Source of the DNA: a virus
DNA length: 64,000 nt
Virus record (IMG/VR): IMGVR_UViG_3300009790_000004
Location: 1-64,000 of that record
Reading direction: 5' to 3' (one strand)
Shown in pieces: positions 25,320-45,041 of this stretch. Position numbers and translations under genes: made by a program. Within the stretch, counting starts at the first letter, position 1. Every line of letters starts with the position of its first letter. The notes below the pieces were generated by a model. It was not told the origin of the DNA and did not search any database. It saw only the letters and a list, made by a program, of their open reading frames with translations.

Positions 25320-25367
25320 TCGGGAAAAAAAACTCCGCAATTTTTTTGAGCCACAGGATTTACTATG
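25320..25367 (+). repeat. Dispersed A/T-tract leader motif, copy 2
   Basis: TCGGGAA-A6-CTCCGC-AATTTTTTTG-N6-AGGATTT-AC-TATG; matches the copy at 11342. Confidence 0.7.
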
Positions 25368-25535
25368 CTTTCAACAACACAGAGAATGCGTCTTATAGAC
25401 ATTTGCGTTGAAATCGTAAATGGTCGTGATGTCCCATTGTCAGATATGATCTGGGCAGAAAAACTTGCTAAAAACAACAAACATGCATATCATATTCTCA
25501 AAGAATCTAGGGACAATATGATTAAGGAAATGTGA
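25365..25535 (+). CDS. Small hypothetical protein (56 aa)
   Basis: Hand-translated MLSTTQRMRLIDICVEIVNGRDVPLSDMIWAEKLAKNN...*, with an AGGA Shine-Dalgarno. Confidence 0.7.
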   Translation: MLSTTQRMRLIDICVEIVNGRDVPLSDMIWAEKLAKNNKHAYHILKESRDNMIKEM

Positions 25536-25539
25536 GAAC

Positions 25540-25568
25540 TTGACTATATACTATGGGTGTGTTATCAT
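25540..25568 (+). promoter_or_regulatory. Sigma70-type promoter for the riboswitch transcript
   Basis: TTGACT-N17-TATCAT, ending about 10 nt before aptamer 1. Confidence 0.8.
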
Positions 25569-25578
25569 TAGCACACAG

Positions 25579-25617
25579 CGTTCAACCCATTAGGGTCGCA
25601 AGTAAGTCACGGAACGG
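25579..25617 (+). ncRNA. Glutamine-II (Downstream-peptide) riboswitch aptamer 1
   Basis: CGTTCA-ACCC-ATTA-GGGT-CGCA-AGTAAGTCAC-GGAACGG matches the CGUUCA/P2/CGCA/GGAACGG core; upstream of a DUF4278-type gene. Confidence 0.85.
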
Positions 25618-25619
25618 AG

Positions 25620-25825
25620 CGTTCATCCCAAATTATGTTTCACTTAGCAGTTATTGCTAGTACTTTAACTTGTACCGAAGCACAGCAACTTCTTGATGCT
25701 ATGAAGGAGTATAAGATTGAAGAAGAAACACGAACTGAAATGATTCAGATCGTGAAAGAAGAAACACCAAATTGTTGGGACGCACATGACTGAAGGAACG
25801 GGGCCTAAAAATCCAACTACTTCAG
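25620..25825 (+). ncRNA. Glutamine-II riboswitch aptamer 2, split by an ORF-containing P2 loop
   Basis: CGTTCA-TCCCAA(25626-31)...TTGGGA(25775-80)-CGCA-CATGACTGAA-GGAACGG. CTGAA is complementary to TTCAG at 25821-25. Confidence 0.75.
25635..25793 (+). CDS. 52-aa peptide encoded inside riboswitch aptamer 2
   Basis: Hand-translated MFHLAVIASTLTCTEAQQLLDAMKEYKIEEETRTEMIQIVKEETPNCWDAHD*. Confidence 0.65.
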   Translation: MFHLAVIASTLTCTEAQQLLDAMKEYKIEEETRTEMIQIVKEETPNCWDAHD

Positions 25826-25834
25826 GAGTAAAAC

Positions 25835-25978
25835 ATGGCACAAGTTACTTATCGGGGAGTCTCCTATGACTCTGCAGACTATCGCAAGATGGTTCTCGAC
25901 GAGGCACAACATAACCGTAATCACGATCTAATGTATCGTGGTATTAAGGTTAAAAGCAAGGCAATTCCTTGCAGTTGA
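25835..25978 (+). CDS. DUF4278-type small protein (47 aa)
   Basis: MAQVTYRGVSYD...LMYRGIKV with two YRG motifs; AGGAG Shine-Dalgarno; this is the usual gene downstream of glutamine-II riboswitches. Confidence 0.88.
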   Translation: MAQVTYRGVSYDSADYRKMVLDEAQHNRNHDLMYRGIKVKSKAIPCS

Positions 25979-26002
25979 TATAACCCGTCTTACAAGTTGA
26001 TG

Positions 26003-26029
26003 AAGGAGGGGGTAAAACCCCTCTTTTTT
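26003..26029 (+). terminator. Rho-independent terminator
   Basis: GAGGGG-GTAAAA-CCCCTC followed by T6. Confidence 0.85.
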
Positions 26030-26048
26030 ATAAATTATGTTAAAAGCT

Positions 26049-26213
26049 ATGGATCGCCAAGTTTTAAAAGGCATGGTTTTAATGCTGAAACAAGTGGTAA
26101 ATGAATTGGAAGCAGAAGTTTTCTCAGATAAAGAAGCATATGTTCCAAAACAACCAACAGCAATAAAGCAAGATTATGAACTCTATGATGATGACGATGG
26201 ATATGCAGATTAG
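26049..26213 (+). CDS. Small hypothetical protein (54 aa)
   Basis: Hand-translated MDRQVLKGMVLMLKQVVNELEAEVFSD...YDDDDGYAD*. Confidence 0.7.
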   Translation: MDRQVLKGMVLMLKQVVNELEAEVFSDKEAYVPKQPTAIKQDYELYDDDDGYAD

Positions 26214-44813: not shown

Positions 44814-44840
44814 TTGTTTGTTGGGTTGATCGCCCAACAT

Positions 44841-45018
44841 GGGAGTGACTGAATAAACTTGCTGGCATATGGCTAGTTAAGGTGATGCAACAGGCGTGGT
44901 GGCCGCTAGGAGGAGTCTCCTAGAACTAACTTACCAGTTAGGTTGTAGACTGATCGGAAAAATCTACTCAATGTAGCAATGCCCCGATCCTGTTGGTACA
45001 CATAAATCCAACCTCCCC
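44841..45018 (+). ncRNA. manA RNA: manA RNA motif
   Basis: GGGAG...CTCCC closing stem, GTGACTGAATAAACTT.CTGGC..., AGGTGATG, GGTGG, TTACCAG and GTTGG...CCAAC; non-coding gap upstream of talC; recognised from memory of the cyanophage motif. Confidence 0.82.
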
Positions 45019-45041
45019 ACTCAAATATTTACTGTTGAATC

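Follow-up and report, generated by a model that had tools for sequence, protein, structure and literature searches.

The window analysed here is a stretch of 64,000 nucleotides (nt), positions 1 to 64,000 of the IMG/VR virus record IMGVR_UViG_3300009790_000004. Its source is a T4-like cyanomyovirus, the top DNA matches in BLAST against phage records being Synechococcus and Prochlorococcus myoviruses. The window contains a compact transcription unit on the plus strand (Table 1), made of a promoter, two glutamine-riboswitch cores (units 1 and 2), a 52-codon open reading frame (ORF) nested in unit 2, a DUF4278 gene and a terminator. The promoter, both units, the hairpin arms around the nested ORF, the two genes and the terminator all lie where a first-pass annotation of the window had placed them.

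The unit has many relatives. BLAST against phage records matched 408 records. In S-SSM4, ACG-2014b, P-TIM40, S-CAM8 and one uncultured virus both small genes are present, annotated as hypothetical proteins, and the flanks common to these relatives read CGUUCAUCCCAUG...UGGGACGCAxACGACUrAAGGAACGG. In the marine virus AG-345-P14 (locus L004) the promoter of the window is kept and an ordinary short hairpin replaces the ORF. Two pattern scans of IMG/VR yielded at least 167 distinct two-unit sequences; among the 167 matches listed, 138 carry an insert of about 140–200 nt and 29 carry none.

The insert lies within the P2 hairpin of unit 2, here called P2', whose two arms stand 143 nt apart in the window. 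Pairs were counted in the 74 distinct insert-bearing sequences of the first scan with a script anchored at the junction, because the MAFFT alignment (A1) placed arms of unequal length in inconsistent columns. At least three contiguous arm pairs form in 74/74 sequences and at least five in 66/74, while five or more are reached in 0.3% of trials at random places within the same inserts. Pairs 1–5 of P2' are formed in 97.6% of cells, compared with a mean of 0.789 and a maximum of 0.843 in 2000 shuffles and with values no higher than 0.58 when the register is slid. All five pairs have changed on both sides, as in UCCCA/UGGGA, UCUAU/AUAGA, CCCCA/UGGGG and UUCUUA/UGAGAA, and further variants of the arms are GAUUAUGG/CCAUAAUC and GAUUAUGGUU/GACCAUAAUC. 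The pairing of distant P2 arms proposed in the first-pass annotation is thereby confirmed: the arms covary over about 150 nt, and the layout is beyond chance.

The sequence between the arms is a gene. An ORF of 49–66 codons, which opens at the first ATG in or adjoining the 5' arm and closes with a UGA or UAA four bases ahead of GGAACG, is intact in 129 of the 138 insert-bearing sequences among the matches listed. The encoded proteins, about 20–40% identical among diverged relatives, share two invariant cysteines, and their alignment contains indels solely in threes. Entropy by codon position (1.41, 0.92 and 1.60) is lowest at position 2 and highest at position 3, and the median ratio of nonsynonymous to synonymous substitution rates (dN/dS) is 0.43, and 0.06–0.5 for close pairs, estimates that are noisy for genes of 50 codons. 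The protein of the window matches PHROG 504 (E = 3.2e-12; residues 6–52 against profile positions 5–53 of 53), and public data contain 25 close homologues of 52–85 amino acids. AlphaFold models it as a helical hairpin with a predicted local distance difference test (pLDDT) score of 77; with this model Foldseek returned nothing from the PDB at E <= 0.001, and a search of the ESM Atlas returned unnamed viral clusters only. The nested ORF is a real gene, and the earlier claims of a protein-coding ORF inside P2 of a glutamine-riboswitch core and of a frame conserved across relatives (dN/dS of about 0.4) both hold. A structured non-coding RNA insert was also considered and rejected, as the codon-level evidence contradicts it.

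Both ends of the nested gene are built into the helices of the riboswitch. As anticipated from the window, the last codons and the stop codon coincide with aptamer-core nucleotides upstream of the DUF4278 gene: the final six codons and the stop form the 3' arm of P2', the linking strand, the 3' strand of helix P3 and part of the internal loop termed the E-loop. Among the matches listed, UGA or UAA occupies the stop position in 138/138 insert forms versus 20/29 insert-free forms, the other nine having CGA (Fisher p = 4e-8, relatedness ignored). In most relatives the 5' arm contains the start codon, and in nearly all forms the ATG is within this arm or adjoins it, at an offset of 9–11 in 71/73. 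The window is atypical in this respect, since its ATG stands 3 nt past the arm, where the helix predicted by RNAfold reaches it; the 3-nt spacing noted earlier is thus correct for the window and does not describe the general layout.

The P2 hairpin of unit 1 can enclose an ORF as well. At least 17 related loci (L114, L071, L043, L068, L095, L102, L023, L030, L052, L115, L036 and others) have one of 61–75 codons there, whose ATG lies in the 5' arm and whose product has two cysteines and a hydrophobic N-terminus. This ORF looks like a paralogue of the nested gene of the window. Both hairpins are occupied by ORFs in many of these loci; in the window, P2 of unit 1 has a 4-nt loop.

The first-pass annotation described the leader as a tandem riboswitch, and two sets of core nucleotides are indeed present, but the independence of two aptamers that this implies did not survive comparison. 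Immediately downstream of AGUA in unit 1 and upstream of GAA in unit 2 lie two complementary segments, and the helix that they make, P3, covaries. It reads AGUCG/CGACU in most sequences and AGUCA/UGACU in the window and three others; in longer types AGCCGACU faces AGYYGACU, GACG-ending strands face CGCC, and GGACGG faces CCGCCC. Among the 167 matches listed, pair 1 is A-U in 154 and G-C in 8, pair 5 is G-C in 150 and A-U in 7, and pair 8 is U-A in 25 and G-C in 6, with 0.944 of all P3 cells paired versus a shuffle maximum of 0.927. The E-loop is split in the same way, as unit 1 alone has AGUA without GAA and unit 2 alone has GAA without AGUA. The two units keep close company, unit 2 starting 3–5 nt after unit 1 in 125/127 copies. 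Two loci, L157 and L197, have no CGUUCA within 5 nt of unit 1; in L157 a CGUUCA follows about 63 nt on, a spacing suggestive of an inserted stretch within the linker loop.

Read across both units, the order of elements is CGUUCA of unit 1, P2, CGCAAGUA, P3 and then GAAGGAACG of unit 2, with an inner core inside P3 that consists of GGAACGG of unit 1, a 2-nt linker, CGUUCA of unit 2, P2' and CGCA. The Rfam glutamine-I model RF01739 aligns the outer core of the insert-free locus L022 in exactly this way, with P3 enclosing 38 nt, at 38–44 bits, above its gathering score. With P3 bridging the units on the AGUA/GAA E-loop, the outer core has the canonical junction of glutamine-I riboswitches; judged from covariation and alignment, the two units are one bridged two-core RNA, not independent tandem aptamers. 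Both sets of core nucleotides retain those that contact glutamine in solved structures (PMC6698751).

The link to glutamine-II drawn in the first-pass annotation is also corrected. A search of the window with the Rfam models sees unit 1 only, below threshold: RF01739 scores 31.0 bits versus a gathering score of 35 (E = 1e-4), and the glutamine-II model RF01704 scores 24.8 bits versus 33, with its 3' hairpin unaligned. Unit 2 goes unreported because the insert splits it. We used insert-free natural relatives (L004, L022, L026 and L060) to score uninterrupted cores, and the positional homologues L004, L026 and L060 all pass with RF01739, at 37.8, 40.3 and 40.2 bits; what keeps the window below threshold is the length that the model can span, not the core sequence. 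The glutamine-I features present include the CGUUC/GAACG P1 words with a G after GGAACG for the long-range pair, a P2 that starts directly after CGUUCA, and the linking strand CGCA at 25597–600 and 25781–84, which supplies the G of a base triple and the long-range C (PMC6698751) and is invariant in alignment A1; an E-loop with P3 is found only across both units, not within either. By primary sequence and covariation, all core features tested make the RNA glutamine-I-like rather than glutamine-II. The sole above-threshold Rfam match in the window is a manA RNA (RF01745) at 44819–45022 on the plus strand, at 155 bits.

Downstream of the sensor, the DUF4278 ORF scores 26.3 bits with PF14105 versus a cut-off of 25.3, and a downstream gene with two YRG motifs is present in all relatives. 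The sequence CUGAAG, which runs from the end of P3 through the E-loop to the first G of P1, is complementary to CUUCAG at the Shine-Dalgarno sequence of this gene, and the resulting anti-Shine-Dalgarno helix covaries: forms with UAA face U in 25/25 cases, forms with UGA face C or U, and forms with CGA face a partner ending in GG. In RNAfold the helix is part of the minimum free energy (MFE) structure at -69.7 kcal/mol, and enforcing the sensor helices raises this to -64.0 kcal/mol, a cost of 5.7 kcal/mol from which tertiary and ligand energies are excluded. At the centre of the anti-Shine-Dalgarno helix stands the nested gene's stop codon, which precedes the DUF4278 start by 41 nt. ON-switch logic has been shown for the Synechocystis gifB (IF17) leader (PMC6212724), and by analogy the arrangement in the window matches it.

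Table 1 Features of the glutamine-sensing unit in the window
Feature	Positions	Strand	Basis or remark
Sigma-70-type promoter	25540–25568	+	TTGACT 25540–45, 17 nt, TATCAT 25563–68; TG precedes the -10 hexamer
CGUUCA, P1 5' strand of outer core (unit 1)	25579–25584	+	Rfam aligns the L022 equivalent as P1 5' strand
P2 hairpin of unit 1, ACCC-AUUA-GGGU, 4-nt loop	25585–25596	+	Sequence, Rfam alignment
CGCAAGUA, linking strand CGCA (25597–600) and AGUA, E-loop 5' half (25601–04)	25597–25604	+	Sequence; roles per PMC6698751
AGUCA, 5' strand of bridging helix P3	25605–25609	+	Pairs with UGACU 25787–91; covariation
GGAACGG, P1-type 3' strand of unit 1	25611–25617	+	With nested P1 pairing, hairpin with 25620–24 over loop G-A-G; part of the MFE structure
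CGUUCA of unit 2 (inner core)	25620–25625	+	Sequence
UCCCAA, P2' 5' arm	25626–25631	+	Covariation; RNAfold lengthens the helix to 25634, touching the ATG
Nested gene, 52 codons and TGA (25791–93), ends W-D-A-H-D	25635–25793	+	PHROG 504, codon-level evidence
UUGGGA, P2' 3' arm, codes for part of C-W-D	25775–25780	+	Covariation
CGCACA, linking strand of inner core (CGCA 25781–84)	25781–25786	+	CGCA invariant among insert-bearing relatives
UGACU, P3 3' strand; the stop codon begins with its final U	25787–25791	+	Covariation
GAA, E-loop 3' half; its GA finishes the stop UGA	25792–25794	+	Sequence, Rfam alignment of a relative
GGAACGG, P1 3' strand of outer core	25795–25801	+	Sequence, Rfam alignment of a relative
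CUUCAG (25820–25), partner of CUGAAG 25790–95, overlapping the DUF4278 Shine-Dalgarno GGAG (25825–28)	25820–25828	+	Covariation, MFE structure
DUF4278 gene, IF17-like, two YRG motifs, 47 amino acids	25835–25978	+	PF14105, phrog_5049
Intrinsic terminator-like hairpin and T run	26000–26031	+	Sequence

The promoter matches 10 of 12 consensus positions, with a predicted start at about 25575, and relatives keep the -35 word CTTGACTAwATA plus a -10 hexamer at equal distance. In relatives the -10 hexamer centres a palindrome whose arms vary between phages yet remain complementary (GGTCTATAATAGACC, GTGTTAGTATTAACAC and GGGTATAATACCC); it lies at 25557–25576 in the window, where it is imperfect (GTGTG..CACAC), and at the same position in L009, L010, L025, L039, L041, L046 and others. 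Possible roles are those of an operator or of a hairpin in read-through transcripts. Many relatives (L022, L054, L034, L082, L112 and others) also have GTA-N8-TAC, the NtcA-box consensus, upstream of the -35 hexamer, about 8 nt upstream of it in L022, the one locus measured. The consensus is absent at 25500–25539 of the window, which is accounted for by the upstream ORF ending at 25535. That ORF (25365–25535) and the one beyond the terminator (26037–26213), both on the plus strand, are small phage genes of unknown function that match phrog_507 and phrog_878. A PhotoRC-II RNA (RF01717) lies a few kilobases from the glutamine unit in L060 (2709–2804), L012 (11262–11350) and L022 (1021–1116).

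In cellular genome contigs the insert-bearing pattern was found in four (L126–L129), all assigned to non-cyanobacterial bins of metagenome-assembled genomes and labelled Acetobacteraceae, Verrucomicrobiales, Euryarchaeota and uncultured bacterium. Mis-binning of cyanophage contigs is the probable explanation. No cyanobacterial genome appeared among the matches of this one narrow pattern scan, a hint that the layout is phage-borne.

The explanation that fits these observations best, and that we consider probable, is a self-contained cyanophage transcription unit, headed by a double-core glutamine-I-type sensor into which a gene is built. We are highly confident of its architecture together with the coding status of the nested ORF. 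Competition between translation and sensing, which fits the anatomy, is a closely balanced matter on which we lean slightly to the doubtful side. As in the gifB leader, bound glutamine would keep nucleotides 25790–800 in the sensor; the Shine-Dalgarno sequence would then be freed and the DUF4278 gene turned on. The same glutamine-bound fold would enclose the initiation region of the nested gene in P2'. For ribosomes, access to the nested gene would be easiest while the 3' arm has yet to be transcribed, and they would have to melt P2', P3, the E-loop and P1 as they proceed. By unzipping these helices they would disable both cores and open the anti-Shine-Dalgarno helix too. Because ribosomes and the sensor fold would exclude each other, we infer that any one mRNA could either sense glutamine or have its nested gene translated, not both at once, and that glutamine would set the balance between two microproteins. 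The full form of this mechanism is a two-way toggle, in which glutamine acts by way of two interlocked binding sites: low glutamine and an open leader give the PHROG 504 microprotein, high glutamine and a closed leader give the IF17-like DUF4278 protein, and ribosomes on the nested gene erase the sensor. We put it forward tentatively.

Several points weigh against the proposed sensor and its mechanism. Both cores are putative glutamine-binding sites. As the P1 strands are identical, the sequence is compatible both with a nested P1 (1 with 2'), which adds a GAACG-GAG-CGUUC hairpin, and with an unswapped P1, which gives two pseudoknots. The nested ORF of the window has no Shine-Dalgarno sequence at a usable distance, the nearest candidate, GGAG, being 15 nt upstream. 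P2' is present in the predicted MFE structure without ligand, so that occlusion of the start codon may not depend on glutamine. A ribosome terminating at 25791–93 would open the anti-Shine-Dalgarno helix, so that DUF4278 expression could be glutamine-independent, contrary to a simple reciprocal switch. The patterns of the IMG/VR scans fixed the P1 words, which the selected loci accordingly share, and the sampled sequences are related, so that the counts overstate independent events. Fragments of this unit and of related units were found in four metatranscriptome runs, one exact contig spanning 25775–25925; contigs from RNA libraries are a weak hint of transcription, as they are blind to strand, ends and level and may reflect DNA carry-over, and stretches that they leave uncovered carry no information.

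The chief rival to a built-in gene with a regulatory role is that of a passenger, captured in a neutral P2 loop much as genes are in the peripheral loops of group I introns, with no mutual regulation under selection. Close relatives do differ in the presence of the insert, L004 having the promoter of the window and no insert, the same family of two-cysteine ORFs occupies the other hairpin loop at no fewer than 17 loci, and the P2 loop is variable in the riboswitch family, the equivalent stem-loop having been re-engineered for crystallisation (PMC6698751). The placement of the ends of the gene speaks against a neutral loop: the start codon lies in or adjoins the 5' arm in nearly all forms, the stop is always within P3 and the E-loop, inside the anti-Shine-Dalgarno helix, and this register is kept despite protein identities of only about 20–40%. 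We therefore regard a passenger gene as unlikely. A different challenge concerns the RNA itself, which may be a plain series of two independent aptamers, each with its own P1, the second tolerating an ORF in its P2 loop. Each unit holds CGUUCA, a hairpin, CGCA and GGAACGG, unit 2 of the insert-free relatives L004, L060 and L026 exceeds the gathering score alone, and 157 glutamine doublets have been counted as tandem, pseudo-cooperative systems (PMC9481103). Two independent aptamers are made improbable by the covariation between the segments that adjoin AGUA of unit 1 and GAA of unit 2, by the half E-loop that either unit has alone, by the rarity of a solitary unit 1 of this type (2/127 copies) and by the Rfam alignment that runs through both units.

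The nested ORF may instead be a leader peptide without a function of its own, for which only the act of translation matters because it unmasks the ribosome-binding site of the DUF4278 gene. The position of the stop codon, central in the anti-Shine-Dalgarno helix and 41 nt before the DUF4278 start, is what one would expect of such a peptide. Selection on the product is nevertheless indicated by the two invariant cysteines, the conserved helical pattern, a dN/dS below 1 and the helical-hairpin model, and glutamine codons are not enriched (3/52), so that we consider a functionless peptide very improbable.

RNAs that act both as regulator and as mRNA are known from SgrS/SgrT, RNAIII/hld and the trp leader, where one RNA serves both roles and the position of the ribosome decides the fold. 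Their ORFs are not known to lie within a metabolite-binding aptamer, unlike the nested gene of the window. Genes housed in a loop of a structured RNA, with a helix closing around them, are also known from the peripheral-loop ORFs of group I and group II introns (PMC3984707); those ORFs encode mobility enzymes away from the catalytic core, whereas the window has a 52-amino-acid microprotein with its start and stop in the sensor helices.

The closest relatives of the RNA are the glutamine-I riboswitches (RF01739), for example the gifB leader (PMC6212724), with which it shares the CGUUCA/GGAACG P1, a P2 straight after CGUUCA, the CGCA strand, the AGUA/GAA E-loop and P3. It also shares with gifB a DUF4278 gene downstream and a part of the 3' core that can pair near the Shine-Dalgarno sequence. 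Unlike glutamine-I riboswitches, the RNA of the window has a P3 that encloses a second, permuted core, and a hairpin loop that is a translated gene with its stop codon in the E-loop. Glutamine-II riboswitches (RF01704; PMC6698751) share the binding-site nucleotides of the window and are likewise linked to DUF4278 genes in marine picocyanobacteria, and once the bridge is drawn the strand order of unit 1 is that of type II, with GGAACGG following the 5' strand of a helix; the E-loop and three-way junction of the window are type-I features, and the glutamine-II score is the lower one. Glutamine doublets were noted by Weinberg et al. 2010 (PMC2864571) and counted by Sherlock et al. 2022 (PMC9481103). 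The window resembles these tandem riboswitches in having two sets of glutamine-binding core nucleotides per leader, and the insert-free relatives (e.g. L004 and L022) probably belong to the published doublets. Those are described as independent aptamers in series, and the window differs by its covarying bridge and the ORF inside. We found no description of a gene in a glutamine aptamer in the literature, although an earlier one is still possible; neither bridge nor ORF is mentioned in Weinberg 2010, Klähn 2018, Huang 2019 or Sherlock 2022, where doublets are treated as independent.

Aptamers are usually regarded as non-coding sensors that stand before genes, and here a widespread natural class contains a translated gene. 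With the start and stop codons in the sensor helices, ligand binding and translation would act on the same nucleotides. The arrangement published as "tandem" would become, at least in cyanophages, one bridged two-core RNA. Since standard Rfam scans miss the split core, current annotation undercounts these elements. The work also brings to attention PHROG 504, an uncharacterised family of two-cysteine microproteins. The unit would tie infection to the nitrogen status of the host through glutamine and through an IF17-like protein related to the inhibitors of glutamine synthetase. If the toggle is true, this would be the first riboswitch class with the start and stop codons of a gene in its aptamer helices, and the phage could use it to match two small effectors to the nitrogen status of its host.

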